Assembly (NCBI RefSeq): GCF_004010195.1
Contig: NC_057755.1
Span: 6,665,210 to 6,723,267 of the forward strand
Source: Chiloscyllium plagiosum
Lineage: Eukaryota
Reading direction: 5' to 3'
DNA: 58,058 nt
Under the pieces are notes generated by a model, which saw only the letters and a list, made by a program, of their open reading frames with translations, made no database searches and was not told the DNA's origin. Both the position numbers and the translations under genes were made by a program. Below are positions 4,126 to 52,895 of the stretch, one piece after another; position 1 is the first letter of the stretch; the number at the start of each line of letters is the position of its first letter.

Positions 4126-7100
4126 CAGTGACTGATTATATCTCTTCACTCCACCCAAATCCTAACACTACTGCCCCGACATCTCAATCTCTGGGGACAT
4201 GGGCTATATCCTCAGTCCCCGGGATAGCAGGGTTCAGATACAGATCTGTGTCTCCCCGAGTGCTGGGCGTTGGTCGCTGTGCGCTGGGTGCTATGTACTG
4301 GATGTTGGGTGGTGCGAGCTGAGCGCTGGATGCTGGACGCTAGATTCTAGGTGCTGGGTGCTGGTTGTTGTGTGATCGGTGCTGGGGCCTGTGTTTGGGC
4401 ACAATTGACTGACTGCAATTGGCACTGAGAAGACGACATCGTAGAACTGACCAGCTGGAAGGTGCTCAATTCCCTTCCATTCATATGTGGGTGGTCTGGG
4501 GACAACCACGTGCCGGAGAGGGAGTAGGTGGATGTGGGCATGTGCCGACTGCCTTGGCAGCTGTCAGTCCACAAACACCTACCAACACCCTGGACCGCTT
4601 TCCCCCCACCCTACCCTGAGTTTCTGAGAGGGTCCAGCCAAGACTGCCAACTGGGGGTTGGGCACAAAGGTTATGCTGCTGATGCCACCTGACAGATGAT
4701 TAGTGCAGACACGATGCTGCCAGTTCCTCAAAAAGGGCAGACAGGTGGGATCCGCTGGGGACAGGTTCATGGTGTTCTGAGCCGGCTCTGAGGGGACAGT
4801 GTTTACCACAATAAACCAGATGGAGTGTGATGAATTGTACTCGACTAATGCACAATCAGAGAACGCAGTATCGTACTAGTCTCCTGAACAGAGCGCACTA
4901 TATTGCATTGGTGTTATGCACAATCACAGCACACTGTATCGTACTGGTCTACTGAACATTCAGAGCACTCTGTATAATACTGGTCTGCTGCACGGCATAT
5001 GCTGTATTGTACTGGTCTATTGGACAATCAAGCACTCAGTATCATATTGGTGTACTGCATAATCAGAGTACGTAATATCATACTGGTCTACTGCACAGAG
5101 TACACTGTATCATACTGGTCTACTCACAGAGTACGCTATATTTTACTGGTCTGTTACACAATCAGAGAACACTTTCTCCTACTGGTCCACTGCACAATCA
5201 GAACACGACGTATTCTACTGGTCTACTGCACAGAGTGCACTGTATTGTACTGTTCTACTGCACAGAGCGTACAGTATCGTATTGGTCGACTGCAGAGGAC
5301 ATGTTCTCCTACTGTTGTACTACATAATCAGAGCATGCTGTATCATACTGGTCTACTGAACAAAGTGCGTTCCATCGTACTGGTTTACTGCATGGAGAGC
5401 GCTATATCATACAGGTCTACTGTATAATCAGAGCACACAATATCGTATTGGTCTTCTCTAATAATCAGAGCACACTGTCATACCGGTCTACTGCACAGAG
5501 CAAGCTGTATGATACTGGTCTACTGAACAATCAGAGCACAATGTATCCTACTGATCTACTGCACAATCAGAGCAAGCATTATCATACCTATCTCCAAAAC
5601 AATCAGAGCATGCTGCATCGTACTGGTCTACTGCACAATCATAGTGTGCTAATTGTATTGGTCTACTGCACAAACAGAGCACACTGCATCTTCTGGTCTA
5701 CTGCACAAAGCATGCTGTATTGTACTGGTCTACTGCACAGAGGATGCTGTATTGCACTGGTCGACCTCACACAGCATGCTGTATCGTACTGGTCTACTGC
5801 AAATCAGAGCATGCTGTATCATGCTCGTCTACTAAAGAATCAGAGCACACTGTTGCAAACTGGTCTACTGCACAGTAGGAATACGCTGTATTGTACTTGC
5901 GTACTGAACAAAGAGAACACGCAGTATTGCATTGGTCTACTGCAGAAGCAGAAGACACTGTATAATGGCATGCTATATCGTGTTGGTCCACTGTACAATC
6001 AAAATATATTGTATCGTACTGGTCTGCACAATCTATGCACAATCAGAGCATGTTGTATTGTACTTGGCTACTGCACAATCAGAGCATGCTGTACTGTACT
6101 GGTCTGCTGTACTGTCCTGGTCTGCTGCACGATCAGAGCATTTTGTGTCGTACTGGTATACTGCACAATCAGGGCATGCTGTATCGTACTAGTTGACTGC
6201 ATACTCAGAGCACGCTGCATCGTAGTGATCTATTGCACAATCAGAGCACGCTGCTTCACACTGGTCTACCGCACAGAGCATGCTGTATCGTACTGGTCTA
6301 CTGCACAATCAGAGCACGCTATTTCGTACTGGTCTACTGCACAAGCGCGGCATGCTGTATCGTACTGGTCTACTGCACAATCAGAATGTGCTGTACCATA
6401 CTGGTCTTCTGCACAGTCAGATCGCACTGTATTGCACTGATCTCCTGCGCAATCAGAACGTGCTGAATCATATTGATCTACCACACGCTAAGAGCACGAT
6501 GTATCACAACGATCTATGGCACAATCAGAACAAGTTGTATCGTACTGATTTACTACACAGAGCAAGCTGTATGATACTGGTCTACTGCACGATCAGAGCG
6601 CGCTGTTTCAAACTGATCCACTGCACAATCAGGTCATGCTGTATCGTACTGGTCAACTGCATAATTAGCGCATGCTGATTCATACCGGTCTATGGCACAA
6701 TCAGAGCACGCATTATCGTACCTTTCTCCTAAACAATCAGAGCATGCTGCATCATACTGGTCTACTGCGCAATCAAAGTGTGCTGATTGTATTGGTCTAC
6801 TGCACAAACAGAGCACACTGCATCTACTGGTCTACAACACAAAGCATGCTGCATTGTACTGGTCTACTGCACAGAGCAGAATGTATTGTACTGGTCTACT
6901 GCACAGAGGACGCTGTTTTTCACTGGTCGACCTCACACAGCATGCTGCATCATACTGATTGACTGCAAATCAGAGCATGCTGTATCATATTCGTCTACTA
7001 AATAATCAGAGCACACTGTCACAAACTGGTCTGCTGCACCGTCAGAACACGTTGTATTGTACTTGTATACTGAACAAAGAGAACACACTGTATCGTATTG

Positions 7101-10100
7101 GTGTCCTGCAGAAGCAGAGGAAAATGTATAACTCTGGTCTACTGCACAATCAGAGTACATTTTATCGTGCTGGTCTACTGGACAATCTAAACATATTGTA
7201 TCGTCTTGGTCTATGCAAAATCAGAGCATGTTATATTGTACTTGTCTACTGCACAATCAGTGTATGCTGTATTGTACTGGCCTACTGCACATTCAGAGCA
7301 TGTTGCATCGTACTAGTCGACTGCACAATCAGAGCATGCTGCATTGTACTGATCTACTGCACAATCAGAGCACGCTGTTTCATACTGGTCTAATGCACAG
7401 TCAGTGCACACTATGTCGTACTGGTCTACCACACAATCACAGCTCGCTGTATTGTACTGATCTACTGCACAGAATGTGCTGTATCGTGCTACACCATCAG
7501 AACACACTGTTTCGAACTGGTCGACTGCGCATGGCACACTGTATCGTACAAGTTTAGTGCACAATCAGAGCGTGTTGTATGATACTGGTCTGCTGCACAA
7601 TCAGTAGGTGCTGTATCATACTCGTGTACTATACAGTCAGACCGCCATGTATCACACTGATCTACTGCACAATCGTAGTGGTCTATGGCACAGTCATAGC
7701 GTGATGTATCACACTGATCTACTACACAATGAGAACGTGCTGTATCATAGTGGTCTACAGCACACTCATAGCACGACGTATCACACTGATCTACTGCACA
7801 ATCAGAACACGCTGTATCGTACTGGTCTACTGCACAGAACAAGCTGTATGATGCCGGTCTACTGCACATTCAGAACACGCTGTATCATACCATTCTACGG
7901 CACAATCAGTGCATGCTGTATTGTACGTGTCTACTGCACAATCAGGGCATGCGATAACGTACTGATCTACTGCATAATCAGAGCACGCTGTTCCATACTG
8001 GTCTACTGTACAATCAGAGCACTCTGTTTCAGACTGGTCTACTGCACAATCAGGGCATGCCGTATCGTACTGGTCTATTGCACAATCAGAGCTCGCTTTA
8101 TTGTAGTGGTCTACTGCATAATCATGGCATGCTGTGTAGTACTGGTCTACTGCACAATCAGAGCGCGCTGTTTCGTGCTGAACTAGTGTACAATCAGAGC
8201 AGGTGTATCGTACTGGTCTACTGCACAATTAGGACATGCTGTATAGTACTGGTCTACTGCACAATCAGAGCACACCTTTTTGTACTGGTCTACTGCGCAA
8301 TCAGGGCATGCTGTATTGTACTAGTCTATGCACAACCAGAACTTGCTGTTTCCTACTGGTCCACTGCACAATCAGGGCATGCTGTACCGTACTGGTCTAC
8401 TGCTCAATTAGAGTACGCTGTATTGTACTGATCTGCTGCACAGAGTGTGCTGTATTGTGCTTCACCCTCAGAACACGCTGTCTCGAACTGGTCGACTGCA
8501 CAGGGCACGCTATATCTTACAAGCTTTCTGCTCAATCAGAACTCGCTGTATCGTATTTGTGTACTGCACAGAGTGCTATGTATCACACTGTTTATTGCTA
8601 AACTGGAGCACACTGTATCGTACTGGTCCATTGCACAGTCAGAGCGCAGTGTATTGCACTGTTCTACTGCACAATCAGAACGTGCTGCATCGTACTGGGC
8701 GACTGCACAGAGCAAGCTGTGTGACACTGGTCTACTGCACCGTTAGAACACGCTGTATCAGACCGTTCTACTGCACAATCAGAGCATGGTGTATCGTACT
8801 GGTGTACTGCACAATCTGCATACGCTGTATCGTACTGGTGTACTGCACAATCAGATCAAGCTTTATTGTGCTGGTCTACTGCACAGAGCACGCTGTATCG
8901 TACTGGTCTATTGCACAGAGCACACTTTATTGTACTGGTCTACTGCACAGAGTATGCTGTATTGTACTGGTCGACTGCAGAGAGTTTGCTGCATCGTACT
9001 GGTCTACTGCAAAGCAGAGCATGCTGCATTACACTCGTTGACTAAAGAATCCGAGCACTCTGTCGCAAACTGGTCCACAGCACAGTCAGAACACGCTGTA
9101 TTGTACTTGTGTACTGAACAAACAGAGCACGCTGTATCGTGCTGGTCTACTGTAGAAGCAGAGCACACTGTATAACACTGGTCTACTGCACATTCAAAGT
9201 ATGTTGTATCGTGTTGGTCTACTGCACATTCAGATCAAGCAGTATTGTAGTGGTCTACTGCACAATCAGATCACGCTGCATTTTACTTGCCTACTGCACA
9301 ATCAGCGCATGCTGCATTGTACTGGTCTACTGCACAACCAGAGCACATTGTATCGTACTGGTCTCCTGCACAATTCAGGCATGCTGTATCATACTGGTCT
9401 ACTGCACAATCAGAGCACGCAGTATCACACTTGTCTACTGCACAATCAGAGTATGTTGTATCGTACTGGTCTCCTGTACAATCAGGGCATGCTGTACCGT
9501 ACTGGTCTACTGTGCAGAGTATGTTGTATCGTGTTGGTCTACTGCAGAGAGTTTGCTGCATCGTACTGGTCTACTGCAAAGCAGAGCATGCTGTATTACA
9601 CTCGTTGACTAAAGAATCTGAGCACTCTGTCGCAAACTGGTCCACTGCACAGTCAGAACACGCTGTATTGTACTTGTGTACTGAACAAACAGAGCACGCT
9701 GTATCGTGCTGGTCTACTGTAGAAGCAGAGCACACTGTATAACACTGGTCTACTGCACATTCAAAGTAAGTTGTATCGTGTTGGTCTACTGCATATTCAG
9801 AGCAAGCTGTATTGTACTGGTCTACTGCACAATCAGATCACGCTGCATTTTACTTGTCTACTGCACAATCAGCGCATGCTGTATTGTACTGGTCTACTGC
9901 ACAACCAGAGCACATTGTATCGTACTGGTCTCCTGCACAATTAAGGCATGCTGTATCGTACTGGTCTACTGCACAATCAGAGCATGCTGTATCATACTGG
10001 TCTACTGCACAATCAATTTATGTTATATCGTACTGGTCTCCTGCACAATCAGGGCATGCTGTATCCTACTGGTCTACTGCACAGTCACCACTCTCTTTAT

Positions 10101-10654
10101 CACAATGGTCTACTGCAGAATTAGAGCATGCAGTATTGTACTGGTAGACCTCGCAATCAGATCACGCTGTATCGTGCTAGTCTTCCGCTCAATCAGAGCA
10201 TGCTGTACCCAGCTGGTCTGCTGCATAATCAGAGAAAACAATATCGTACTGGACTACGACACAATTAGAACATGCCATAACCTACTGGTCTACTGGACAC
10301 TTAGAGGATACTGTAGCGTACTGGTCTGCTGCACATTCATAGCACACTGTATCACAGTGGTCTTCTGCACAATCAGAGCACGCTGCATCATACTGGTCTA
10401 TTGCACACGCAGAGTGCAATACATAGTACTGGTGTTATGCATCATCAGAGCATACTGTATCGTACTGGTCTACTGCACAGAACAATTTGTATGATACTGG
10501 TCTGCTGAACAGAGTGCACTATACTGCATGGGAATTTGCGCAATTAGAGCACACTGTATGACACTGGTCTACTGCATAATCAGAGCATGGTGTATCATAC
10601 TGGTCGCCTGCACAGAGTGCACCACATTGTAATGGTGTTACACATAATCAGAGG

Positions 10655-12156: not shown

Positions 12157-12576
12157 CTGGAGCGTCGGAGGCTGAGGGGTGATCTTATAGAGGTTTACAA
12201 AATTATGAGGGGCATGGATAGGATAAATAGGCAAAGTCTTTTCCCTGGGGTCGGGGAGTCCAGAACTAGAGGGCATAGGTTTAGGGTGAGAGGGGAAAGA
12301 TATATAAGAGACCTAAGGGGCAACTTTTTCACGCAGAGGGTGGTACGTATATGGAATGAGCTGCCAGAGAATGTGGTGGAGGCTGGTGCAATTGCAACAT
12401 TTAAGAGGCATTTGGATGGGTATATGAATAGGAAGGGTTTGGAGGGATATGGTCCGGGTGCTGGCAGGTGGGACTAGATTGGGTTGGGATATCTGGTGGG
12501 CCTGGATGGGTTGGACCGAAGGGTCAGTTTCCATGCTGTACATACATATGCCTCAATGACTCTATGACTCTATGAC
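12157..12576 (+). mobile_element. CR1 LINE 3' end, same subfamily as 10655-11097
   Basis: Closely similar to ~10690-11097; RGMDRINRQSLFP...WNELP; (CTATGACT)n tail. Confidence 0.93.
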
Positions 12577-15500
12577 ACTGTACTGGTCTACTGCAATGAC
12601 TCTATGACTCTATGACACTGTACTGGTCTACTGAACTTTCAGAGCACGCTGTATCATACTCGTCTACTGTACAATCAGAGTGCACTGTATCATAATAGGT
12701 GACTGCACTATGAGAGCACGCTGTATCTTATTGGTCTACTGCATAATCAGAGCATGTTATATCATACTGGTCTACTGCACAGAGTACAATGTACAATACT
12801 TGTCAACTCACAGAGCGCTCTGTATTGTACTGGTCTGGTGCACAATCAGAAAATGCTCTCTCCTACTGGTCCACTGCACAATCAGAGCACGATGTATTGT
12901 ACTGGTCTACTGCACAGAGCACACTGTTTTGTACTGGTCTATTGCACAATCAGATCCTGCTGTATCCTACTGGTCTACGGCACAGTCAGAGCGCTATTTA
13001 TCACACTGGTCTACTGCAGAATCAGAACATTCTTTAACGTACTGGTCCACTGCACAATCAGAGCATGCTTTATCGTACTGGTCTCCTGCACAATCAGAGC
13101 AGGCTGTATTCTCCTGGTCTCCTGCACAATCAGAGCAGGCTGTATCCTGCTGGTCTGCTGCACAATCAGAGCCCGCTATATCGTACTGATCTACTGCACA
13201 ATCAGAACATGTTATATCATACTGGTCTACTGGACAATCAGAGGATACTGCATTGTACTGGTCTGCTGCACAATCAGAGCACGCTGTGTCATACTGGTCT
13301 ATTGCACAATCAGAGTGCACTACATTGTACTGGTTTTATGCATCATCCAAGCATACTGTATCGTCCTGGTCTACAGTACTCTGCACAATACACTGTATTG
13401 TACTGGTCTGGTGCACAATCAGAGAACGCTCTGTCGTACTGGTCCACTGCACTACCAGAGCACAATGTATCGTACTGGTGGACTATACAGAGTGCACTAT
13501 ATTGTACTGGTGTATTGCACAATCAGTACGTGTTGTATCGTACTGGTCTACTGCACAGAGCACGTTGTTTCGTCCAGGTGTACAGCACAATCAGAGCCCG
13601 CTGTATCCTACTGGTCTACTGCACAGAGTGTGCTTTATTATAGTGTTCTACTGCACAGAGCATACTGAATCATATTGGTCAACTGCACAGTCAGAGGATG
13701 CTTTATCACACAGGACGACTGCAAAAGTTTAGCACGCTGTATCATACTGGTCTATTGCACAAAGTACACTGCATTGTACTGGTCTACTGTACAGTTCTAC
13801 TACACAATCATTATCGTACTATTCTCCTGCGCAATCAGAGCATGCTGTATCATACTGGTCTACTGCAAGATCAGAGCGTGCTGATTATATTGCTCTACTG
13901 AACACTCAGAGCATTCTGCATATACTGGTCTACTGCACAGAGAATGCTGTATCGTACTGGCCTACTGCACAGTTAGAATGCGCTGTACCATACTGGTCTA
14001 CTGCTCGGAGCACGTTGCATTGTGCTGGTCAACCTCATAGAGCATGCTGCGTCGTACTGATCTCCTGCAAATCAGAGCATGCTATGTCATATTCGTCTAC
14101 TAAAGAATCAGAGCACACTGTCGCGAACTGATCTATTGCACAGTCAGAGCACGCTGTTTCGAGCTGGTTTACAGCACAATCAGAGCATGCTGTATCACAC
14201 TGGTGTACTGAAGAATCAGAGCCCGCTGTTTCATACTGGTCTATTGTACAAAGCAGACTGTATTGTACAGGTCTACTGTACAGAGTGTGCTGTATCATAC
14301 AGTTCTACTGCATAATCAGAGCACGCATTATCATACTATTCTCCTGCACAATCAGAGCATGTTAAATCATACCGGTCTACTGCACAATCAGAGCGTGCTG
14401 AAAATGTTGCTCTACTGAACAACCAGAGCATGCTGCATCTACTGGTCTACTGCACAGAGAACGCTGTGTCGTACTGGCCTACTGCATAGTCAGAATACAC
14501 TCTACCATACTGGTCTATTGCTTGGACCACGTTGCATTGTACTGGTCAACCTCATAGAGCATGCTGCATCGTACTGGTCTCCTGCAAATCAGAGCATGCT
14601 ATATCATATTCGTCTACTAAAGAATCAGAGCACACTGTCGCGAACTGATCTATTGCACAGTCAGAACACACTATATTGTACGTGTGTACTGAACAAATAG
14701 AGCACGCTGTAGTGTGCTGGTCTACTGCAAAAGCAGAGCACGCTGTATAACGGTGTTCTACTGCACAATCAGAGCACGTTATATCGTACTGGTCTACTGC
14801 ACAATCAGAGCACGTTGTATCGTACTGGTCTACTGAACAATCAGGGGACGTTATATTGTACTTGACTACCCCGCAATCAGAGCATGATGTATTGTACCGG
14901 TCTTCTGCACATTCAGAGCACGTTGTATCGTACTGGTCTACTGCACAATCAGGGCATGCTGTATCGCACTGGTCTACTGCACAATCAGAGCGTGCTGCAT
15001 TGTACTGATCTACTGCACAGAGCATGCTGAATCGTTCTTAACCATCAGAGCACACTCATTTGAACTGGTCGACTGCACAGGGCACGCTGTATTATACAGG
15101 TTTTCTAAATCAGAGCACGCTGTATGGTACTGGTCTACTGCACAATCAGAAATTGCTGTTTGTCCAGTTCTGCAGCACAATCAGAGCACGATGTATTTTA
15201 CTTGTCTACTGCACAATTGGAGCATGTTGTATCGTACTGGTTTACTGCACAATCAGAGCATCTTGTATTGTCCTGGTCTTTTTGCACAATCAGAGCATTT
15301 TATATCGTACTGTCTACAGCACAATCGGAGCACACTGTTTCGAACTGGTCTTCTGCACAGAGAGCCCTGCATTGTACTGGTTTACTGCACATGGCATGCT
15401 GTATCGTGCTGCACCATGAGAACAAGCTGTTTCGAACTAGTCCATTGCAGAGTGCAAGCTGTATCGTGCAAGTTTACTGCACAATCAGAGCACGCTGTAT

Positions 15501-15861
15501 GGTACTGGTCTGCTGCTTAATCAGAACGTGCTGTATCATACTCGTGTACTGCACAGTCAGAGCATGACGTATCACACTGGCTTACTGCATAATTAGAGCA
15601 CACTGTATCGTACTGTTCTACTGTTCAAAGTGCACTGTATTGTACTAGTCTACTCTACAGAGTGCGTTTTATTATATTGGTCTACTGCACAATCAGAGCA
15701 CACTGCATCTACTGGTCTACTGCATAGAGAATGCTGTATCGTACTGGCCTACTCTACAGTCAGAATGTGCTGTACCATACTGGTCTACTGCACAGAGCAC
15801 GCTGTGTTGTACTGGTCGACCACCCAGAGCGTGATGTGTCGCACTTGTCTACTGCAAATCA

Positions 15862-15993
15862 GTAGATTCCTGAAGAAGGGCCTGTGCCCGAAACGTCGAA
15901 TCTCCTGTTCCCTGGATGCTGCCTGACCTGCTGTGCTGTTCCAGCAATAAAGTTTCAACTTTGATCTCCAGCATCTGCAGACCTCACTTTCTC
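15862..15993 (+). mobile_element. 132-bp Penelope-type terminal-repeat insertion with a 13-bp TSD
   Basis: CTACTGCAAATCA is present at both 15849-15861 and 15994-16006. The body is homologous to the terminus of the PLE at 28298-28400. Confidence 0.88.
15864..15903 (+). ncRNA. Minimal type I hammerhead ribozyme
   Basis: AGATTC-CTGAAGA-A-GGGC-ctgt-GCCC-GAAAC-GTC-GAATCT: 6-bp stem I, CUGANGA core, 4-bp stem II, GAAA, palindromic ACGT in place of stem III, and a GUC cleavage triplet. Confidence 0.85.
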
Positions 15994-17784
15994 CTACTGC
16001 AAATCAAAGCATGCTGAATCATACTCGTTTTCTAAAGAATCGGAGCACACAGTCCCGAGCCGACTGCAGAAGCAGAGCACGCCGTATAACAGTGGTCTAC
16101 TGCACAATCAGAGCACGTTATATCATATTGGTCTACTACATAATCAGAGCACGCTGTTTCGTACTGGTCTACTGCACAATCAGGGCATGTTGTATCATAC
16201 TGGTCTAGGAAAAATCAAAGCATGCTTCATTGTATGATCTACTGCACAGAGCATGCTGTATCGTTCTTCACCATCAGAACACACGGTTTCAAACTGGTCG
16301 ACTGCATAGGGCACGCTGTATTGTACAAGTTTTCTACATGATCAGAGCACCCTGTATGGTGCTGGTCTACTGCACAATCAGAAAGTGCTGTATCGTCCAG
16401 GTCTGCTGCACAATCAGAGCACGATGTATTGTACTTGTCGAATGCACAATTGGAGCATGTTGTATCGTACTGGTCTACTGCACAATGACAGCACGTTTTT
16501 TAAATACTATTCTACTACACAATCAGGGTATGAGGTATTGTACTGGTGTAAAGCACAATCAGAGCACGCTGCATTATATTTCTCTACTGCCCACAGCATG
16601 CTGTATCGTGCTTCACTATCAGAATACGCAGTTTCGAATTTGTCCACTGCAGATTGCACACTGTATTGTACAGGTTTACTGCAGAATCAGAGCACGCTGT
16701 ATGGTACTGGCCTGCTGCACAATCAGAGCGTGCTGTATCATACTCGTGTACTGCACAGTCAGACCATGACGTATCACACTGGTTTACTTCACAATTAGAG
16801 CACGCTGTATCATACTGGTCTACTGCTGAAAGTGCATTATATCGTATTGGTCTGCAGTACAGAGTGCGCTATATCATACAGGTCTACTGAACAATCAGAG
16901 CATGCTGCATCATACAAGTCTACTACACAATCAGAGCGTGCTGATTATATTGCTATACTGAACAATCAACGCACACTGCATCTACTGGTCTACTGCACAG
17001 AGAACGCTGTATCGTACTGGCTTACTGCACAGTCAGAATGTGCTGTACCATACTGATCTACTGCACAGAGTATGCGGTATTGTACTGGTTGACCTCACAG
17101 GGCGTGCTGTATCGTACTTGTCCCCTGCAAAACGGAGCATGCTGCATCATTCTCGTCGACTAAAGAATCAGAGCACGCTGTCACGAACTGGTCTGCTGCA
17201 CAGTCAGAACATGTTGTATTTGTGTACTGAACAAACAGAGCACGCTCTATCGTGCTGGTCTACTGCACAAGCAGAGCACGCTGCAAAACAGTGGTCTACT
17301 GCACAATCAGAGCACGTTGTATCGTACCGGTCCACTGCACAATCAGAGCACTCTGTATTGTACTTGTCTACTGCACAATCAGAGCGTGATGTATTGTACC
17401 TGTCTACTGCACAATCGGAGCATGTTGTATCGTACTGGTCTGCTGCACAATGAGAGAGCGGTGTTTTGTGCTGGTCTACTGCACAATCAGGGTATGCTGT
17501 ATCGTACTGGTCTACTCCACATTCATAGTGCTGCATCATATTGATCTACTGTACTCAGCATGCTGTATCGTGCTTCATCTTCAGAACACGCTGTATCGAG
17601 CAAATCCACTGCAGAGTGCACGCTGTATTGTACAAGTTTTCTACACAATCAGAATATGCTCTATGGTACTGGTCTACAGCACAATCAGAGCTCGCTGTAT
17701 CGTACTCGTGTACTGCTCAGTCAGAGCCTTTTAGACAATGAGCCTTAAAGATTCTCAGCACATTTTATTGACATAGAAATAAAT

Positions 17785-20000: not shown

Positions 20001-23000
20001 TCTGCTCCTGACTCTATTATGAACTTACTTTCTTGGTATTGTCATATTATTTAAGGTAACATGGAATAGAGTGCCTGTGTTAATGCGTTAGGGTGTGTTT
20101 TGTTGTGTTAAAGCGTTAATTGGTGTGTAAGAGTGTGTTAGTGAGTATGTTAGTTTCCGTGTGTGTTTTATGGTGGGGCAAGGAGATTCAGTCTTCTATA
20201 ATCAAATGCAGTGAGTTCCTTGATGTGAAGTTTATACCTTGCCCACAAATTGGTCTGAAATTTCTCTGTACCCGCTAACTATTCTCTTTAAAATCGTTCT
20301 CAGCCAGAGAGACATGCATTGTTAATAGATGATCTATTAGTCTTCAGTAATCAAGTTCCATATCAATTAGAGGTGTGTTGACTTTATCCATTGTTTATTT
20401 GTTCCAGTATTATCCTCCCAGTTCGGTGTTTTCAGAACCCCCACTGGCAAAGATATTTATTACCTTGAACAACTGAGACCGTATCCTGCATGAAATTCGA
20501 TGGGCACAATTTTATTGTTATGTTTTTCTCTACTATAACCAGTGTCTGTTAAAAAAGAAACGGAGAGGGACAAGGGTGAACGTAGGGAAGAGTTGCTTTT
20601 AACCACTTCTCCCTGTTCAATCTTTGTCTCCAGAGCATTCGAGACTTTGTGAGCTGTTCAACGGTTCCTGATTTTCTAATGTCCTTTCTGACCCAACACA
20701 AGGGTGACTTGCTCAGGGCAAATTAATGATCAAAGCATGCAAAGTTTGCATCATTAGCCCTTTCAACTGTTTCAATTATACCTTCAACAAAGTTAATAAC
20801 TTTGGTCAATTCATGACCTTCCTTCTGAAAATTGAGGTAAACATGTTTCCCTATTGATATCGTCAGAATTATAATTTCGCCAGTTGTGCAACGCAAACTT
20901 GGTCATCACATCAGGTATTGCCAAGACTTTAATAACATGCAATTAACATTAAAATCTGAATTAATATATTTGCACCATTGCTGTATCTCCCTCGAATAAT
21001 TAGATCCCACTGACAAGCTTTGAGTTGAGCTTAATCAGTTAATGACTCTTGAAAAGAAAAATTGGATTTAGAATATTTATTTTACATTCCATTAACGTCG
21101 TGGTTCTGGAAAATGTTGAAGCAAGTGAATACCGAATTTGAAGCAATACCCAATTTCTGCCTTTTCCATGCCATGCATAACTCTGTGCAAGTCCTTTAAT
21201 ATTGCTCAGCTTTATTGTCTAAACTTTTTTTCTAAGTTTCATTGCAGCAGCAATTCAAGAACATTCCATATCAGAAGGCCATAACAAATAGAAACAGCAT
21301 TCGGCCATTCGGCCCCTTTAGCTTGCTCTGTCTTCGAATGGGATCATGGCTGATTGCTGGTTCCTCATGTCCATTTGCCTATCCTTTCCCCATAACCCTT
21401 GATTCCCCTCCTGACCAAGAATCTATCTATCTCAGTCTTAAATATACTTCAGTACACTGCCCTCTCAGCTGTCCCTTGGAAATGTAGTCACGAATCTAAA
21501 ACAATAAGCGTATGCCATGCACTTTCCAGTAATGACAAAGGATGGTCACCACACTCGATGATCAATGATGCTAATGCTCATGACAATTCAAAACTGTCGC
21601 TGTTACTGTCTAAATGAGTGAGACAAAGGATGCTTAATGACTTTTTTTTATCGTTAACCAGAACTGAAAGGAAACCAAGAAAGTTACAACGAATTATGAG
21701 CGATTCCTGTTCCTCTGTGGGCATGCCAGTCACCTTCGTCCTGTGATGATATTCCGTTTGTTCATTTTGGTGAATGGTGTATCTGTTATTCAGCTGCGTT
21801 ATCTCCTCATGAACACATAGAACATAGATCATAGAACATTACAGCACAGTACAGGCCCTTCGGCCATCGATGTTGCGCCGCCCTGTCTTACTAATCTGAA
21901 GCCCATCCATCTACACTATTCCATTTGCATCCATATGCCTGCCCAATGAAGACTTAAATGAACTTAAACTTGGCGAATCTACTACCACTGCAGGCAATGC
22001 ATTCCATATCCTTACTATTCTGCGAGTGAAGAAAGTACCTCTGAAATCTGTCTTATACATATCTCCCCTCACTTTAAAGCTGTATCCCCTCGTGTTTGCC
22101 TACCCATGCTTGGAAAAAGGTTCTCCCTGTCCACCCTATCTAACCCTCTGATTATCTTGTACGTCTCTATTAAGTCACCTCTCAACCTTCTCTCTAGCGA
22201 GAACAGCCTCAAGGCCCGCAGCCTTTCCTCGTAAGACATTCCCTCCATACCAGGCAACTTCCTAGTAAATCTCCTTTGCACCCTCTCCAAAGCTTCAACA
22301 TCCCTCTTATAATGCGGTGACCAGAACTGTACACTATACTCCAAGTGTGGCCGCATCAGAGCTTTGTACAGCTGCAGCATAACCTCCCGGTTCCAGAACT
22401 CAATCCCTCTATTAATACAGGTCAAAACACTGTATGCCTTCTTAACAACCCTGTCAATCTGGGTGGCAACTTTCAGGGATCTGTGTCCATGGACACCGAG
22501 ATCCCGCTGTTCATCTGCACTCCCTAGATACCTACCATTAGCCCAGTACTCTGCATTCCGATTACTCCATCCAAAGTGTATCACCTCACACTTGTCCACG
22601 TTAAATTCCATTTGACAACTCTCAGCCCAGCTCTGCATCCTAACTATGTCTCTATGCAACCTACTACATTCTTCATCACTATCCACAACTCCACCTACCT
22701 TAGAGTCGTCTGCAAATTTGCCAACCCACCCTTCTAAGCCCTCATCCAGGTCATTTATAAAAATGACGAACAGCAGTGGACCTAACACTGACCCTTGTGG
22801 TACGCCGCTACTAACTGGACACCAAGATGAACATGTTCCATCAACTACAACCCTCTGTTTTCTTTCAGTAAGTCAATTACTTATCCAAACTGCTATGTCT
22901 CCCACAATCCCATTCCTCCGCATTTTGCATAATAGCCTACAGTGGGGAACCTTATCGAACGCCTTGCTGAAATCCATATACACCACATCAACCGGTTTAC

Positions 23001-23353
23001 TCTCATCTACCTGTTTGTTCACTTTGTCAAAAACTCACTAAGATTCGTTAGGCACGACCTACCCTTCGCAAAACCGTGCTAACTGTCCCTGATCAGATTA
23101 TTCTTTTCTGGATGGTTATAAATCATATCTCTTATAATCTTTTCCAACACTTTACCAACAGCTGAAGTGAGACTCGCTGGCCTGTAATTACCAGGGTTGT
23201 CTCTACTACCCTTTTTAAACAAGCGAACCAAATTTGCTATCCTCCAGTCCTCTGGCACTATTCCTGCAGACAATGATGATTTGAAGATCAATGCCAAAGG
23301 CTCGGCATCTCTTCCCTTGCTTCCCAGAGGATCATATGATAGATACCATCTGG

Positions 23354-23406
23354 GATGGAAATGTGTTGCTGGAAAAGCGCAGCAGGTCAGGCAGCATCTA
23401 GGGAAC
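23354..23406 (-). mobile_element. 53-bp Penelope terminal-repeat fragment flanked by a 94-bp direct duplication
   Basis: gctggaaaagcgcagcaggtcaggcagcatc matches ~28318-28347; 23260-23353 is repeated at 23407-23500. Confidence 0.85.
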
Positions 23407-24295
23407 ATTCCTGCAGACAATGATGATTTGAAGATCAATGCCAAAGGCTCGGCATCTCTTCCCTTGCTTCCCAGAGGATCATAGGATAGATCCCATCTGG
23501 CCCAGGGGACTTGTCTATCTTCACATTCTGCAATAATTCCAATACCTCTTCCTTATGAACCTCAATTTCTTCTAGTCGAGATGAAAGTATCTCTGTATCT
23601 TCCTCGCCAGCATTGTCATTTTCTATGTTGAACACTGTTGAAAAATATTTATTTAGTGTTTCCCCTATCTCCTCTGCCTCCACACACAACATCCCATTAC
23701 TATCCTTTATTGGCCCTAATTTAACTCTTACTCCTTTTATTCCTGACACACCTATGGAAAGCCTTAGGATTAACCCTGATCCTATCCGCCAATAACTTTT
23801 CATGTCTCCTCCTGGCTCTTGAGTTCTCTTTTTAGGTCTTTCCTGGCTTCCTTGTAACCGTCAAGCTCCCTATCTGAGTTATCACATTTTGCCCTATCAT
23901 AAGCCTTCTTCTTCTTCTTGACCATAGATTCCACTTTCTTAGTAAACCACGGCTCCGTTCTATAACGTCCACCCTGTCTAACAGGTACATACTTATCTAG
24001 GACACACTGGAGCTTTTCCTTGAATAAGTTCCGCATTTTTAATGTGCTCATCCCCTGCAGTTTCCTCCCGAAATCTACGCTTCCTAAATCTTTCCTAATT
24101 GCATCATAGTTTCCCTTTCCCCAGCTGTAACTCCTGCTCGGTGGAGTACACCTATCTCTTTCCATCATTAAAGTAAACTTGACAGAATTGTGATCGCTCT
24201 CTCCAAAGTGCTCACCTACTTCTACATCTAACAACTGGCCAGATTCATTACCCAGTACTAAATCTAAAGTGGCTGCGCCCCTTGTAGACCTGTCT

Positions 24296-24382
24296 TGATT
24301 TTGCTGAAGCTCCTCGATGCAGATTTTGCTGAAGCTCCTCGATGTTGCCTGAACTGCTGTGCTCTTCCAACACCATTGATCC
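24296..24382 (+). mobile_element. 87-bp Penelope terminal-repeat fragment with a 10-bp TSD
   Basis: AGACCTGTCT at 24286-24295 and 24383-24392; body gatttt...ctcctcgatgttgcctgaactgctgtgctcttcc. Confidence 0.8.
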
Positions 24383-24885
24383 AGACCTGTCTACATACTG
24401 TGTCAGGAAGCCCTCCTGCACACAGTGGACAAAAACTGACCCATTTATAGAACTCGTACTGTAGTGTTCCCAGTCAATATTTGGATAGTTGAAGTCCCCC
24501 ATGACAACTACCCTGCCTCTCTCACTCCTATCGAGAATCATCTTTGCAATCCTTTTCTCTACATCTCTGGATCAATTCAGAGGCCTATAAAAACTCCCAG
24601 CATGGTGACTTTTCCTTTCCTGTTTCTAACCTCAGCCCATACTACCTCAGTTAATGAGTCCCCAAACGTCCTTTCTACAGCTGTAATATTGTCCCTGATC
24701 AACAATGCCACACCTCCCCCTCTTTTACCATCTTCTCTGTTCTTACTGAAACATCTGAATCCTGGAACCTGCAATAGCCATTCCTGTCCCTGCTCTATCC
24801 ATGTCTCTGTAATGGCCACAACATCGAAGTCCCAGGTACCAACCCACGCTGCCAGTTCACTCACTTTGTTTCGGATGCTCCGCGT

Positions 24886-25070
24886 GTAGATGTTGGGGAC
24901 AAGGAGTAAGTTTAAGGAAGGGTTAGAAAGAGTTTTGATGAGAAATGTGCTGCTGGGCTGTGGAGAGTTGGCCACAAAATGAGACCGAGATGAGATCAGT
25001 CATGACAGTAAAAAAAGGAACAGAATCGAGGGGCTGAATGGCCTCCCTCTGCTCGTAGTACTTATCTTCT
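24886..25070 (+). mobile_element. Decayed CR1 3' fragment
   Basis: tttaaggaagggttaga...agatcagtcatga...gagggctgaatggcctccctctgctc. Confidence 0.6.
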
Positions 25071-28297: not shown

Positions 28298-29871
28298 ACG
28301 TCAAGATTAGAGTATTGTTAGAAAAGCACAGCAGGTCAGGCAGCATCTGAGGAGCAGGAAAATCGACGTTTGGGGAAAATGCCCTTCATCAGGGATGAGG
28401 CTGGTAGCCTCAGTGGTGGAGAGATAAATGTGGCTGGGGTGAAGATAGCTGAGAGTACAATCGTTGGATGGAGATTGCGTAAAGGTAATAGGTCGGAGAG
28501 AAGGGTGGAGTGGATAGGTGGGAAGGAAGATTGACAGGTGAAGCGGGTCAGGTACGTTGCTGAGCTGGAAAGTAGAATTGGAGTAAGTTGTGGGGAGGGG
28601 AAATGAGGAAACTGGTGAAGTCCACTTTGATGCCCTATGGTTTAAGGGTTCCGAGGCCGAAGATGAGGCGTTATTCGTTCCAGGCATCGCGTGATAAGGC
28701 AATGGTGATGGAGGAGGCCTAGGATCTTCGTGTCTTCTGTATGTGAAATGTTCGGCCACGGGGCAGTGGGATTGATTGGTGTGGATGTCCCTGATATGTT
28801 CTCTGAAGTGCTCTTCGAGTAAGCGTCCATTCTCCCCAAGGTCGGCAGACAGTATTGGGAGCAACAGATACACTAAAGGACACGTGTGGAGGTGCAGGTG
28901 AAACTTTGATGGATGTGGAAGGCTCCTTTGGGGCCTTGGAAGGAGATGAGGTGGGAGGTGTGGGCACCGGTTTATCAATTCCTGTGGTGACAGGGGAAGG
29001 TGTTGGGAGGGGAGGGTGAGATGTTAAGGGGCGTGGACTTGACCAGGTATATGTGGATGAAACAGTCTTTATGGAAAGGGTATAGAAGTGGGGAGGGAAA
29101 TATATCACTGGTGGTGGGTTCCATTTGAAGATGGGAAACTTTTGATGGATGATGCAATGAATACAAAAGTTGGTGGGGTGGAAGTTCAGGACCAGGGGGG
29201 TTCTGTTTTGTTGTGGTTGGAGTTGTGGGGTTCGAGGGCAGAGGTGCAGGACGTGGATAACATGCGTTGGAGGGCATCCTCAACCCTGTAAGAGGGGAAA
29301 ATGGTGGCTTAAAAGTATTGGATGTGTTCTGTCGTGAAACTGGTCCCCCTGGGAGTAGACAAGGCAGAGGCAGAGGAATTGGGAATGGGGATAGTATTTT
29401 TGCAGGACGTAATGTGGGAGGAAGTGTAATCGAGGTAGCTGTGGGAGTCAGTGGGTTTATAGAAAATGTCAATGCTGAGTTGGTCACCATTGATGGAGAT
29501 GGAGATGTTCAAGAAAGGGAGAGAGGTGACAGATATGGTCCAGGTGAATCGAAGGTCGGGGTGGAATGTGCTGTTGAAGTTGATGAACTGTTCAACCTCC
29601 TCGTGGGAGCCTGAGGTGGCACCAATGCAGTCATCAATGTAGCAGAGGAAAAGGTGGGGAGTGGTGACGCTGCAATTCTGGTAGATGGGCTGTTCCATGT
29701 AGCTGACAAAGAGACAGGCATAGCTGGGCCCATGTGAGTGCCCATGGCTGCATCTTTCGTCTGGAGGTAGTGGCATGATTCGAAGGAGAAATTCTTGAGG
29801 GCGAGAACCAATTCAGCCAAACGAATAAGAGTGGCAGTGGAAGGATACTGGTGGGGACGTCGGGCGAGGAA
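28298..29871 (-). mobile_element. Penelope-like retroelement, 5'-truncated and frameshifted
   Basis: RT motifs AMGTHMGP / GPSYACLFVSYME / LCYIDDCI / LPFLNISI / IFYKPTDSHSYL; GIY-YIG-like GENGRLLEEHFREH...VAEHF; terminal repeat with a hammerhead relic at ~28360-28397. Confidence 0.9.
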
Positions 29872-31096
29872 GCTATTTTATGTAGCCGAAAAATGGTTAC
29901 ATGGGATTGAGGTTCACAAGGAGGAGGTGTTAGTAATTCTGTAAAGTGTGAAAATAAATAAGTCACCTGGGCCAGTTGGAATTTAAACTACAATTCTCTG
30001 GGAAGCCATGGAGGGGATTCCCGAGGCTTTGGTTTTGATTTATGTGTCAGCGTTGTCTGCAGGAATAGTGCCAGAAGATGGGAAGTTTGGAAATGTTGTC
30101 CACTTGTTCAAGAACGGGAGTAAACAGAATCCTAGTAATTATAGACCAGTGAGCCTTACTTCGGTTGTAGGATAAGTGTTGAAAAAAGTTATCAGAGATA
30201 GGACTTCTAATTAACTAGAAAGAGTTAAGCTGATTAGGGATTGTCAAAAGGATTTTATGAAGGGTAGGTCGTGCCTCACAAACCTTATTGAGTGCATTTA
30301 GAATGAGACCAAACAGGTGGATGAAGGTAAAGCTGTTTATTTGGTGTATATGGATTTCAGTAAGGCGTTTGTTACGTTTCCCCATGGTAGGCTATTGCAC
30401 AAAATACGGAGGCATGGTATTGGGAGTGACTTAGCGGTTTGGATCAGAAGTTGGCTCGCTGAAACAAGACAGAGGGTGGTGGTTGATGGGAAATGTTCAT
30501 CCTGGAGCTCTGTTACGAGTGGCGCACTGTACTGATTTATTTTGGGTCCACTACTGTTTGCCATTTTTATAAATGACCTGGATTAGGGTGGAGAAGGCTG
30601 GTTTATTAAATTTGCGGATTACACTGAGGTCGGTGGAGCTTTGGATAGTGCAGAAGGGTGTTGTAAGTTAGAGAGGGAAATGCATAAACTGCAGAGTTTG
30701 GCTGAGACGTGGCAAATGGAGGTTAATGCGGAAAAGTGTGAGGTGATTCACTTGGGAAGGAGCAACAGGAAAACAGGGTATTGGGCTAACGGTTAGATTC
30801 TTGCTGGTGTAGATAAGCAGAGGGATCTCGGTGTGCATGTAATAGATCCCTGAAAGTTGCCACTCAATTTGTTCGGTTTGTTAAGAAGGCATACTGTTAT
30901 TAGCTTTTATTGGTAGAGGAATTGAGTTTAGGAACCACGAGGTCATGTTGCAGCTGTACAAAACTCTGGTGCGGCCACACTTGGAGCATTGCGTACAATT
31001 CTGGTCACCTCATTCTTGGAAGGATGCGGAAGCTTTGGAAAGGGGTCAGAGTCGATTTATGAAGATGTTGCTTGATATGGAGCGAAGGTCGAATGA

Positions 31097-33560: not shown

Positions 33561-34588
33561 TCCAATAGCAGGCTTGAAAGAATATACATTTGATCCTTAA
33601 AACTGAGATTCTATTTTCTGTACCTCTGCTTTCTTGTTATTGAAGTCGAGGCCAGAGCCTGAATTAATATTTGGGTTGCATGTGCTGCTGAAGTATTATG
33701 CCTGTTAAAGATACACCAGAAAGTTCAGTTTGTGCTGTGATTTTCCAACTTATTATCAACGTATTTAAGGTTCAGAGAGTAGGATCGTAGTTCTAAGAAT
33801 CAAATGAATGTTCTTTGGATCCTGCAGAATGTTTTCTCCATGTATCTGCATCATCTGAAACCAAGAAAGCAACAATCTCCTGTGACAATGATGATCCAGA
33901 TTGTAGAAACAGCGTAAGCAAGGTGACCATTTAATCGCATCTAGTGTGTTTTTCTTTTTCAGTTATTCCTTAATATTCCCACTTGTCTGTCTGTCTTGGT
34001 GTTAGAGTACCGGCTATAATTAAGGAATGTTGGGGTTAAAAAGAAACCATTAGTTAGATCATTTTGCTGCTGAAAATTGCTCTGCTTAGGTTAATATATT
34101 GGTAACGAATTGTTTAGCCTTTTGTTTGAGGGATAGACTTCATATATGGTATTGATTATTCAAAAAGTCTAATGCTGGTGATTCAAAGAATATGTTTGGG
34201 AACCATTGGCATCACTTTTGTGAGACACTGAGCATTTTAATTTTCCTGCATAGTAAATACAAGTACCTGTATAGCGAAACTGATTTGATTTGGCTGTCAG
34301 GCTTTGTATCTGAGCAAATGCAACCTGTTCTAAGGACAACTTCCATAATGAATTTTCAATAAATTGAAAGCAATTCACTGGAAGATGCTGGAAACAAGCC
34401 AAAATATCAGTCACTCCATTCTGAGTATTCAGGGATTTGTTATCCAACTATGAACTTTCCATTACTCATATGAGAAAAAACATTGCATGGAATTCTGTGT
34501 CGTAAACGTCTCCACATTTCATCCCAAAAGTTGTAGACTTTTGTTATAATTGATTCCCTTTTATGATTTTCATTCATTTAACTCACAG

Positions 34589-35598
34589 CAAACCTGATGA
34601 CAATGATAATTCTCTCCATGGGAAATTGCAGCCTTTCCAATTGTACCTCTGCCTACATGGTGGCCATGACAACAGCAGTTTTACTGGTCTTGATCTTAAA
34701 CATAACTGTGTTTCATATTGTCAGTGATCACTTTCCACATTCGGACCTTTCTTACACTGGGTTTTGTAAGTTCCTTAATTATACGAGCTCAACCAACCTG
34801 TTCTTTTCAGTGTGGTCCACAGTCTTGTTCACATTTGATCGATATGTAGCTATATGTTGTGAGAGGCTGAAAAGAAAATATTGCAGAGCGAGGACAGCGT
34901 CTGCAGTTATAATGATCACCACTGCCCTGGTTTGCCTGGAGAACATACCCTTTTTATTTGCATTTGAACCTCAAAAAGTAACTGTTCATTTACAGTAGGG
35001 TTGTCACAATAAGTTGAACTTCTTCACTTCGCCATTAGGTTTAGCATTCTCCCAGTTGCAAACTGCTTTTGTTGTTTGGCTTCCGTTATCTTTACTGTTC
35101 ATATTTAATTGTTTGATCATCAGACGTATTGTAGTCGCCAATAGATCTCGCAGAGCTGTCTGGGGACGAAATACTGGGAGTCAAGAGACCCAGAGATGGA
35201 AAGTCGAAAAAGGTCCATGATTTTATTCTTCACTATATCCGGAAGTTTTATTCTTCTCTGGCTGACAGCTGCTGTGAGCTTTTTATGTACGAGGATTACA
35301 AATACTACACACTATCGTGGTGATTACACAGCTCCTGCCTACATTGCCACTGAAGCGGGCTACCTGCTCATGTATTTGAGTTCATGCAGTAACGTGTGTA
35401 TTTGTACAGCCACACAAAGGAAATTCAGGGAAGAACTTTCGGAGGCAGAGGAATACAAAGGAGCTGGAGGTAGTGTTTACTTCCTGTTAAACATTCGTCG
35501 ACTGACCAAACCCAGAATTAATGGCCAAGGAAGTGATGACATTCCCTTGGCCATTAATTCTGGGTTTGGTCAGTCGACGAACGTTTAACAGGAAGTAA
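34589..35598 (+). pseudogene. GPR139/GPR142-like class A GPCR pseudogene, main exon (end of TM1 to C-terminus)
   Basis: Acceptor ...aactcacag at 34588. Protein motifs: NLMTMIILSMGNC...YMVAM, SVWSTVLFTFDRYVAICC, ENIPFLF, DPEMESRKRSMILFFTISGSFILLW, TQRKFREEL. Lesions: TAG at 34996-34998, a frameshift near 35170-35190, and an 88-bp insertion at 35439-35526. The upstream exon was not located. Confidence 0.88.
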
Positions 35599-43029: not shown

Positions 43030-43400
43030 GATTGGGGGAGGTAGCACTAAATGGGGGAATTGGTGCAGTATAGTACTAAGTGAGAGAATTGTGTCAATGC
43101 TGCAATGAATGGGAGCATTGCTGCAGTGCAGCACGAAATGGAAGAGTTGGTGCAGTTTTGCAATAAACTGCAAAATGCATGAAGTGTTGCTTTAAATTGG
43201 AGAATTGGTGCAAGGTAGTACTAAAAGAGGGAATTAGGGCAGCGTAGCACTACTTTGGAGAATTGGTGCAGTGAAGCAATAAATGGGAGAATTCGTGCGA
43301 TGTATCCTGAAATGGGAGAATTAGTGCAGAACAGTAGTAAATTGGAGACTTGGGACAGTGTAAAATAAACGGGAGAATTGGAGCAGCATAATACTAAATG
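43030..43400. repeat. 29-bp satellite, edge block
   Basis: Same consensus and orientation as 1-3460. Confidence 0.92.
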
Positions 43401-46414: not shown

Positions 46415-49165
46415 AAATGGGGGAACTGGTTCAGTTTAGCTTTAAAAGTAAAAGGTTTGGGGCAGGGTAGCACTAAATGGGAGAAATTGTGCAGTGTTGC
46501 ACTAAATGGCAGAATTGGTGCAGTGAAACAAAAAATTGAAGAAATGGAGCCGTGTTGTACTAAATGAGAGAATTCGTGCAGTGTAGCACTAAATAGGAGA
46601 ATTGGTTCAGAGTAGCAAGCAATGGGACAATCGGAGTAATGTAGCACTAAATGGGAGAACTGGTGCAGTGTTGCACAAAATGGGAGAATTGGTACAGTGT
46701 AGCAAGACATGGGAGGATTAGGGCACTGTATCACTAAATGAAAGAATTGGTGCACTGCAGCTCTAAATGGGAGAATCAAAGCAGTGTTGGACTAAGTGGA
46801 AGAATTTGTGAAGTTTAGCACTAAATGGAAGATTTTGTGGAGTGTGGTACTGAAATGGATAATTGGGACAGCGTAGCACTAAATGCGAGAATTAGTGCAG
46901 CGTAGTACTAAATGGACCAATCGATGTAGTGCAGCTCTCAATGGGAGAATCGATGTGATGTAGCACTAAAAGGGAGAATTGGGGCAGCATAGCGCTAAAT
47001 GGGAGAATTGGTGCAGTGGACCACGATATGGGTAAATTGGTGCAGAGTAGCATCAGATGGGAGAATTGGTGCAGTAAAGCTTTAAATGGGTAAATTGGGA
47101 CTGTGTAGCACTAAATGGGAGAGTTTGTGCTGTGGTGCACACAACGAAAGAATTGAGGCAGCGTAGGAAGAATTATGAGAATTCTGGACATGTAGTATGA
47201 AATGGGAAAATGGATGCACGGTAGCACAGTATGGGTGAAATGGTGCAGCCTTGTACTAATGGTAGGATTAGTGTAGAGTATCACTAAATGATATAATTTG
47301 TGCTGTGTCACACTAAATGGTAGACATGATTCAGTGTAGCACTTAACTGAAGAATTTTTGCAGGGGAGCACTAAATGGATGAATTGGACTAAATAGGAGA
47401 ACTGTTGCAGACTGGCAATAAATGTAAAAATTGGTGATGTGTAACACTAATGGTAAATTGGTGTCGTGTAGCAATAAAAGGGAGGATTGGGGCAATGTAG
47501 AAGTAATTCGGAGAATTGGTGTGGAGAGAGCACTAAATGGGAGAATCGAGGCCATACAGCAGTAAATGGGAGAATTGGTGCACTGTAGCAATGAGTGGGA
47601 CAACTGGTGCAGTTTCGTACTAAAAAGGAGAATTTGTGTAGTGTCGGAATAAATGGGAGAATTGGGGCTGAGTAGCATTAAATATGAGAATTAATGCATA
47701 GTAACACTAAATTGGAGAATTCGTGCTTGGTCGCACAAAATGGGAGAATTGAGGCAGTGTAGTGCTAAATGGGAGAATTGGTGTAGTGTGGCACTCTATG
47801 GCAGAATTGGTCGCAATAAGTGGAAGGATTGGAGCAGCGGAGCAATCAATGGAGGAATTGATGTAGTGTTACACGAAATCGGAGAATTGGTGCAGTGTTA
47901 CACGAAATGGGAGAATTGGTGCAGTGTAGAGTAAATGGGAGATTTGGTTGAGTGTAGCAATAAATAGGAGAATTCCTGCAGTGTAATACTAAATGGGAGA
48001 ACTGGTGCAGTGTTGCAATAAATGGGAGAATTGGTGCAGTGCAGTACTAAATGTGAGCATGACTGCACTGTAATGTGAATTGTGAGAATTGGTACAGTAT
48101 AATGTTAAATGGAAGTGTTCGTTCAGTGCAGTACTAAAAATTGAGCATTGGTGCAGTGTAGTACTAAATGGGAGAATTGGATCAGTGCAGTGGTAAATGG
48201 CAGAATCGTTGCAGTGTACTGTTAAATGGGAGAATTGTTTCAGTGTAGTACTAAAAATGGAGAACTGGTTAAGTGTACCAAATTGCTGCAGTGTAGTACT
48301 GAATGGGAGAAAAGCTGCAGTGTTGGACTAATATCCAGTGCAGTATAGCGGGAAGTGCAAGAATTAGTGCAGTGCAGCACTAAGTCGGAGAATTGGTACT
48401 GTGTAGCAATAATTGGTAGTTTTGGGTCAGTGCAGCACTAAATGGGAGAATTGAGGCATTGTAGCGATAAGTAGGAGAATTGGTGCAGTGTTGCACGGAA
48501 TGGAAGAATTGGTGCAATTTAGCAATAAGCTGGAGAATTGATGAAACGTGGCAATAAATGGGACAATTTGTGTCGTGCAGCAATATATGGGAGTAGAGTC
48601 GCAATAATTGGAATTGGGCTCGTGTAGCACGAATTGGGAGAATTGGTTCGGTGTAGCAATAAATGGAAGAATTGGTGCAGTGTACCCCTAAATGGGAGAC
48701 CCGATGCAGATTAATACTAAATTGGAGACTTGGGGCATTGTAGCAATAAATGGGAGAATTGGTGTTGCATAATACTAAATGCGAGTATCAGGGCTGCGTA
48801 GTCAAAATGGGGGAATTGTTGCAGTGCATTTTTGAAATGTGGATTTGAGGCTGGGTAACAATAAATATGAGATTTTGTGCAGTGTTGCGCTAATTGGCAG
48901 AGTTGGTGCAGTGTAACACTAAATTGAGGAAATGGTGCAGTGTTGTACTAAATAGGCAATTTGGTGCAGAGTAGCGCGAAATGGGAGAATTGGTGTCATA
49001 TAGCAATAAACAAGAGAATTAGTGCAGTGTAGTACTAAAGAGGATAATTTGTGCAGTGTCGCACTAAATGGGAGAATTTTAAAAGGGAGAATTGCGGCAG
49101 TGTGGCACTAATTGAAAAATTGCGGCAGTCTGTACTAAATTAGATGATGAATGCAGTGTAGTATC

Positions 49166-52800: not shown

Positions 52801-52895
52801 TTGGAGCAGTGTTGCACTAAATGTGAGAATTGAGGCAGTGCAGCACTAATTGAGAAAATTGGTGAGGTGTAGCACTAAATGGAAGAACTGGTGCA

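Follow-up and report, generated by a model that had tools for sequence, protein, structure and literature searches.

A short, probably recent insertion of a Penelope-like element end module with a minimal hammerhead motif in a satellite array of Chiloscyllium plagiosum

In our analysis of a 58,058-nucleotide stretch of the Chiloscyllium plagiosum genome (contig NC_057755.1; the whole stretch is hereafter the window), we found a 132-bp insert in a satellite array which, by the features tested, is a truncated insertion of an EN+ Penelope-like element (PLE) with a minimal hammerhead. We consider it quite probable that the insert is a solo pseudo-LTR (pLTR) plus tail of a high-copy, likely Neptune PLE, and that it arose as a short by-product of the element's own copying and not as a member of a separate mobile family. 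The coordinates of the features are collected in Table 1.

Table 1. Features of the insert, its target site and the related element relic in the window.
Feature	Position	Strand	Basis or remark
Left target site duplication (TSD), 13 bp, variant of the 36-bp satellite unit	15849..15861	+	CTACTGCAAATCA; sequence comparison, empty site in run X1
Right TSD, 13 bp	15994..16006	+	CTACTGCAAATCA, identical to the left copy
Non-element junction filler GTAG	15862..15865	+	Family homology starts only at 15866; the outer 2 stem I pairs come from the filler
Minimal type I hammerhead	15864..15903	+	Sequence, fold, chance test and hallmarks described in PMC4209133; activity is a prediction
pLTR, 3' end module of a Neptune-type PLE	15866..15961	+	The RT/EN relic's 3' end is 82% identical over 84 nt; other window copies stop about here
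Optional ~35-nt tail	15962..15996	+	Last 2-3 nt overlap the right TSD (putative priming microhomology)
Diverged 36-bp satellite array hosting the insert, ~148 units with 65% matches	12620..17727	.	
Degraded 5'-truncated PLE: RT, Cys-linker remnant, GIY-YIG region, pLTR with broken hammerhead	28313..29982	-	Older, different subfamily; locates the insert's sequence within the parent element

The insertion is real and likely recent, because one contig of DNA run X1 shows the site empty, paralogous array segments align across it without a gap and the duplicated 13-mer is a scarce satellite variant. The insert lies at 15862-15993, and the clean 13-bp TSD that a sequence-only reading had placed around it is correct in its coordinates and identical at 13 of 13 positions. 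This variant 13-mer occurs three times in the window (at 5794 and as both TSD copies), as against 37 copies of the satellite-consensus 13-mer across the two arrays, and the insert-free site is ~80% identical to array segments 13916-14232 and 16973-17283, with no gap at the junction. The X1 contig joins 15848 to 15994 (the 13 letters fit either side) at a depth of 14.7, equal to that of the flanks, which carry no listed letter differences; X1 may be another species or carry a duplicate of the array. The rare variant, the gapless paralogues and the empty site rule out a TSD that is merely two neighbouring satellite units, and the perfect duplication together with the empty site indicates that the earlier description of a young, TSD-flanked retroposition product is probably right. 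The comparison with sequencing runs covered four of the 24 listed (X1, X9, X20 and X22) at an identity threshold of 88%.

The 36-bp satellite forms arrays at 4837-10479 and 12620-17727, which resemble themselves at a higher order (~80%) when shifted by roughly 1.1-1.2 kb or by 1.8 kb, and the two arrays are parted by LINE-like fragments at ~10.6-12.5 kb; a perfect 40-bp duplication lies at 12554-12633. A second satellite, with a 29-bp unit and strong G skew (about +0.4), occupies 1-1812, 43041-43400 and 46457-56529, where it ends at a 500-N assembly gap (56530-57029). Interrupted rhodopsin-family 7TM receptor frames at 34582-35588 on the plus strand (7tm_1 E 1.9e-10 for the first piece) are likely a pseudogene.

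Using BLAST, we found five further copies of the insert sequence in the window (at 28396, 25587, 23407, 24337 and 40827), three of them with flanking direct repeats of 9, 10 and 94 bp. The copy at 28396-28313 (minus strand) is 82% identical to the insert over 84 nt and forms the collinear 3' end, on the same strand, of a decayed ORF (29982-28576) which matches RT and GIY-YIG proteins. This relic (28313-29982) carries frameshifts and stops, is truncated within the RT and has a hammerhead core broken at G12; inspection of its ends gave no clear TSD. Its RT has 33 protein matches, the best being Chiloscyllium punctatum ORFs (76%), and in 23 of these 33 relatives we noticed a CX3-5CxxC linker, which marks Neptune/Nematis rather than Poseidon (the criterion for Neptune being a CX2-5CxxC linker between RT and a C-terminal EN). 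The parent element is likely of the Neptune clade, judged from a relic which is only 82% identical, lacks the tail, has itself a decayed Cys linker and represents a different subfamily from the insert; the sequences compared include no full-length element of the exact subfamily. At least half of 11 sampled 31-mers were present in 20 of the 24 listed runs (5 organism labels, 8 studies), and 28,688 contigs of X1 match the stretch, with a summed contig depth 10^5-10^6 times that of the flanks, a figure unsuitable as a copy number. Because of this spread, the number of X1 contigs and the collinear RT/GIY-YIG relic, sequence comparison identifies the insert as the pLTR end module of an abundant PLE common to related species. 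The insert codes for nothing, in keeping with the dependence on a PLE RT that had been proposed for it.

A LINE relic at ~22070-25000 (minus strand, with RVT_1 and Exo_endo_phos matches), which we take to be CR1-like, hosts two pLTR insertions. Within this relic, a 53-bp pLTR fragment (23260-23500, minus strand) is flanked by a 94-bp direct repeat (23407-23500 and 23260-23353, identical at 92 of 94 positions), far beyond the usual PLE TSD length, which could have arisen through a very long stagger or through duplication coupled to repair. The pLTR fragment at 24286-24395 (plus strand) has a 10-bp TSD, a 5' end at about the hammerhead cut site and a tandem duplication of its first ~23 nt, and is a single candidate for a copy made from cleaved RNA.

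The 3' ends of the family pile up at 15993-15996 with heterogeneous flanks in four of four runs, and the five other window copies stop at about 15959-61 or earlier, leaving one of six copies with the tail. An optional PLE tail of 30-40 bp has been described (PMC11167929, PMC8557442), and the tail of PAc, an Anolis Poseidon PLE, is bounded by two internal RT start sites (PMC11167929). A 40-aa read-through search for a link from tail to ORF gave 0 matches. At the other end, the six window copies show at least four kinds of 5' start. One copy begins in the PLE body and two or three of the six (the insert, 25587 and possibly 40827) at the ribozyme front edge; 24337 begins roughly at the cut site, and 23407 further downstream. 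Random 5' boundaries had been named earlier as the mark of an ordinary truncated PLE, and the outcome is mixed; the several kinds of 5' end speak for truncation, and the share at the ribozyme front edge against fully random ends. The agreement of 5' loose ends at 15866 was 0.58 in X22, 0.43 in X9 and 0.42 in X1, the last barely above the 0.34-0.39 of most heterogeneous 3' flanks, and many copies end near 15866, as a dedicated short master would also give. The X22 loose-end consensus begins with TTATCT ~30 nt upstream, and in the relic body this sequence stands about equally far from the core. On this sequence evidence, some genomic copies continue into the PLE body and many end near 15866. Head-to-tail or partial tandem copies of the unit do occur elsewhere: in a few X1 and X20 contigs the tail is repeated, or its end runs back into the front of the hammerhead. 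Such copies would be where to seek dimer-competent ribozymes.

Between the left TSD and the first family base stand four letters foreign to the element. In the run comparison, family depth climbs ~40-fold at 15866, the family sequence is CCTC where the insert has GTAG (15862-65), and loose ends at 15866 read ...CCTC in three of the four runs (X22, X1 and X9). Together with GTAG, the target and junction bases (TCTACTG 15848-54 / CAGTAGA 15860-66) make up a 7-bp inverted repeat, the copied part of which stops at the left edge of the TSD. In a post hoc test, 2 of the 256 possible 4-nt fillers would yield such an inverted repeat; that the AG of the filler also lengthens stem I is a 1-in-16 coincidence. 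From the 7 bp and this test, GTAG is likely a snap-back copy of the target at the 5' junction, a category of junction known from R2 insertions (PMC11371274). The 6-bp stem I called perfect in the sequence-only reading is indeed present in the sequence but is specific to this copy, with two of its six pairs supplied by non-element junction bases and one by the minority base A15900, where 480 of 715 family RNA reads and 62% of X1 depth have T. Because the family has CCTC at 15862-65 and mostly T at 15900, its usual stem I would hold about 2-3 standard pairs at these positions. This is an annotation trap, in that junction filler can supply a 'perfect' ribozyme stem which, in context, it is also predicted to disable.

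The motif itself comprises stem I (15864-69/15898-903), the core CTGAAGA (15870-76), a 4-bp stem II (GGGC/GCCC, 15878-81/15886-89), GAAA (15890-93) and the palindrome ACGT (15893-96), with a predicted cut after C15897. The core (CUGANGA / GAAA / UH) is intact and complete as first described, and its pattern has a single match in the 58 kb and none in 100 shuffles. PLE minimal hammerheads are recognised by an extra base between positions 9 and 10.1, a G10.1-C11.1 pair and a palindrome (PMC4209133), and the insert has all of these: an unpaired A15877 between A9 and G10.1 (left out of the earlier account), the pair G15878-C15889 and a palindromic 15.2-16.2 segment with no stable helix III (self-duplex -3.1 kcal/mol). 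The assignment to a PLE-type minimal type I hammerhead with a palindromic, loopless stem III is thus borne out by its hallmark features. A search of the Rfam hammerhead models gave 0 hits, whether at the gathering threshold or at E <= 10, probably owing to the missing helix III; the lone Rfam match, TCL6_1 (E = 2), is due to chance. The folding energy of the whole insert was no better than that of shuffles (z -0.98), and the hammerhead alone gave z -2.04. Family variants in the run comparison were common at N7, in loop II and at 15900, and the only core variants listed were A-to-G at 15892-93 (6-7% of RNA reads, <0.2% of X1 depth), in a tally which is biased by the identity threshold. A hammerhead pattern scan of metagenome and viral contigs gave 0 matches; a second metagenome pattern gave nine loci, all chance, with no homology beyond 22-25 nt and no PLE ORF.

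It had been suggested that the ribozyme could cut read-through satellite transcripts after 15897, leaving RNA 5' ends at 15898. Such cutting by the insert is unlikely on the folding predictions, because a junction hairpin competes with stem I, the window holds no intact dimer partner and no RNA starts pile up at 15898. The 6-bp stem I forms when the insert is folded by itself. With up to 10 nt of upstream flank, the probability of its inner pair is at least 0.88 in 11 of 12 folds; flanks of 14-20 nt give mixed values (0.00-0.87, 8 folds), and flanks of 30-200 nt leave it at 0.25 or less in all 16 folds. With the pairing span limited to 80 nt, the probability is 0.11-0.16 for flanks of 50-200 nt, all of these being equilibrium predictions. 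The predicted junction hairpin takes up the 5' strand of stem I and would displace the stem in read-through satellite RNA. No second intact hammerhead core occurs in the 58-kb window, and co-folding without constraints failed to reproduce the active geometry of a dimer, a result neutral as to dimer activity. Among the 24 listed runs, no RNA run contains the exact stretch. In X22, a polyA single-cell library ill-suited to this test and of which about 2% was read, 2,041 family reads showed no read-end pile-up at the cut site (depth 746 before and 778 after, a weak test) and 0 reads fell on the insert flanks; the reads derive from copies other than this one, and the insertion may be missing in that animal. 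As described in PMC4209133, a tested minimal hammerhead monomer did not cleave and dimers cleaved weakly, and dimer cleavage is credited to Lunse et al. 2016 in a review (PMC6765202). The PAc ribozyme needed the protein and was dispensable for insertion in vitro, and the account in PMC11167929 reports no reads stopping at its cut site. The ribozyme of the insert is predicted to be a passenger, inactive alone, with no partner nearby and with stem I lost in satellite-initiated transcripts.

To account for the structure of the insert, the following sequence of events can be proposed. A PLE protein would nick the satellite and prime on the RNA through a 2-3 nt match at the tail end (15994-96), and reverse transcription would start internally, at the tail, a mode shown in vitro with the lizard PLE PAc. 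cDNA synthesis would halt ~130 nt on at the ribozyme front edge, either on reaching the 5' end of the RNA, or its vicinity, or on meeting the folded motif. Either the single-stranded 13-nt overhang of the target or the cDNA end would then snap back and copy 4-5 target bases, giving GTAG before the 5' junction closes, and gap filling would yield the 13-bp TSD. If priming took place internally, on the tail belonging to the first pLTR of the RNA, and copying ran back to near the RNA 5' end, the 5' clustering could arise without a second family. Such an origin is in keeping with the published descriptions, according to which RT initiates internally at two sites (PMC11167929) and most minimal hammerheads are single and probably derive from truncated PLEs (PMC4209133).

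The closest competing view is that the ~130-bp unit is its own non-autonomous, PLE-dependent, SINE-like family, its short copies being transcribed from the ribozyme front edge, with the Neptune protein copying them again in trans. The very high copy number, the sharp 3' end, the recurrence of 5' ends near the ribozyme front edge and the low loose-end agreement in X1 and X9 would suit it, and rotifer PLE pLTRs are reported to suffice in cis for trans mobilisation (PMC3846280). Against this, the sequence is no more than the end of the PLE, some of the copies reach into the body, the insert has no family bases just upstream of 15866, and internal priming on an autonomous RNA gives the same product (PMC11167929); we therefore hold a separate family to be unlikely. 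Of the earlier proposal of an own family, the short non-coding unit stands, with a fixed 3' end, and its separateness is unlikely given the collinearity with the RT/EN relic, the mixed 5' ends and the copies extending into the body. Similarly improbable is a currently mobile, self-propagating shark family whose ~130-bp RNA starts at the hammerhead front edge and is copied whole by the Neptune protein, with the ribozyme switched on only by that protein or by trans-dimerisation between its many transcribed copies. If true, this insert, still segregating and with its stem I rebuilt from target DNA through snap-back, would capture integration in the act of making new, context-switched ribozymes.

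Two further explanations concern the route by which a lone pLTR came to lie between TSDs. A longer PLE (pLTR-ORF-pLTR) could have inserted and then recombined between its repeats to a solo pLTR with the TSD kept; the same TSD and ends would be expected, and solo pLTRs formed by recombination or deletion have been suggested for rotifer PLEs (PMC3846280). We judge this very unlikely, as the insertion looks recent (perfect TSD, X1 empty site), just ~100 bp of homology would be available for recombination and no long allele appears among the loose ends or joints listed. That the insert is a monomer of a non-LTR retrozyme, derived from ribozyme-released (circular) RNA and actively cutting satellite transcripts, is hardly credible. 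Its complete core, the formation of the 6-bp stem I in folds of the insert alone, the few head-to-tail joints among X1 and X20 contigs and the description of solo monomers of PLE-derived retrozymes (bioRxiv 10.64898/2026.07.22.740005) would favour it, but the insert is a single copy, its ends (15866 and ~15996) do not fit a unit released by cleavage at 15897/15898, its hammerhead is minimal and not canonical, and both the competing hairpin and the want of a second intact core in the window count against it, as do, weakly, the lack of a read-end pile-up in X22 and of RNA reads on the flanks. No tail-to-front back-joint carried reads of this polyA single-cell run. The solo pLTR left by the element's own copying is the explanation we prefer.

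The single copy by itself is of little weight. Nevertheless, the empty site suggests recent Neptune-type PLE activity in the shark lineage, and fresh insertions would help in studying the PLE cycle. Should the short copies turn out to form a family of their own, the PLEs of sharks would have a ribozyme-headed, SINE-like partner of very high abundance.

In comparison with known systems, the insert most resembles the minimal hammerheads of metazoan PLE pLTRs (PMC4209133; Cervera and de la Pena 2014) in its intact core, extra base, G10.1-C11.1 pair and palindromic 15.2-16.2 segment without loop 3, and in occurring singly and in linkage to a PLE ORF; it differs from those described there in its short stem II (4 bp) and in a stem I lengthened by target-derived bases. 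Sharks are not named among the hosts in the text of PMC4209133 examined, and we found no publication on shark PLE hammerheads in the literature outside Repbase/Dfam, subscription journals and supplements; the supplements of PMC4209133 and bioRxiv 10.64898/2026.07.22.740005 may list shark motifs. As with EN+ PLE insertions (PMC11167929, PMC8557442, PMC3846280), there are two 3' ends ~35 nt apart, 5' truncation, an uncut hammerhead and a TSD within the described 8-13 bp, the TSDs of those insertions being of variable length and the site here being known empty. Unlike the described insertions with an inverted pLTR (same sources), the insert has only a 4-5-nt mirror of the target, and unlike Anolis Poseidon PAc (PMC11167929), its relatives carry the Neptune-type Cys linker. 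The short inverted copy of nearby sequence is like the snap-back at TPRT 5' junctions of R2 (PMC11371274), although the R2 cases described are mostly cDNA-primed and come from engineered human cells, whereas this is one natural case of 4-5 nt. Animal non-LTR retrozymes (PMC7229834, bioRxiv 10.64898/2026.07.22.740005), as characterised in these sources, share the short, non-coding form, the type I hammerhead, the relation to PLEs and a TSD of >4 bp; unlike them, the insert is not tandem, its ribozyme is minimal and its ends are PLE ends. It is a single unit with the one intact core of the window, in place of tandem hammerhead units, and it has no helix III loop, in place of a canonical hammerhead with helix III and loop 1-loop 2 contacts. 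The label 'retrozyme-like' given in the sequence-only reading does not suit a single unit with ends away from the cut site. In essence, the insert is of a kind already known, solo minimal hammerheads from truncated PLEs having been described in 2014 (PMC4209133).
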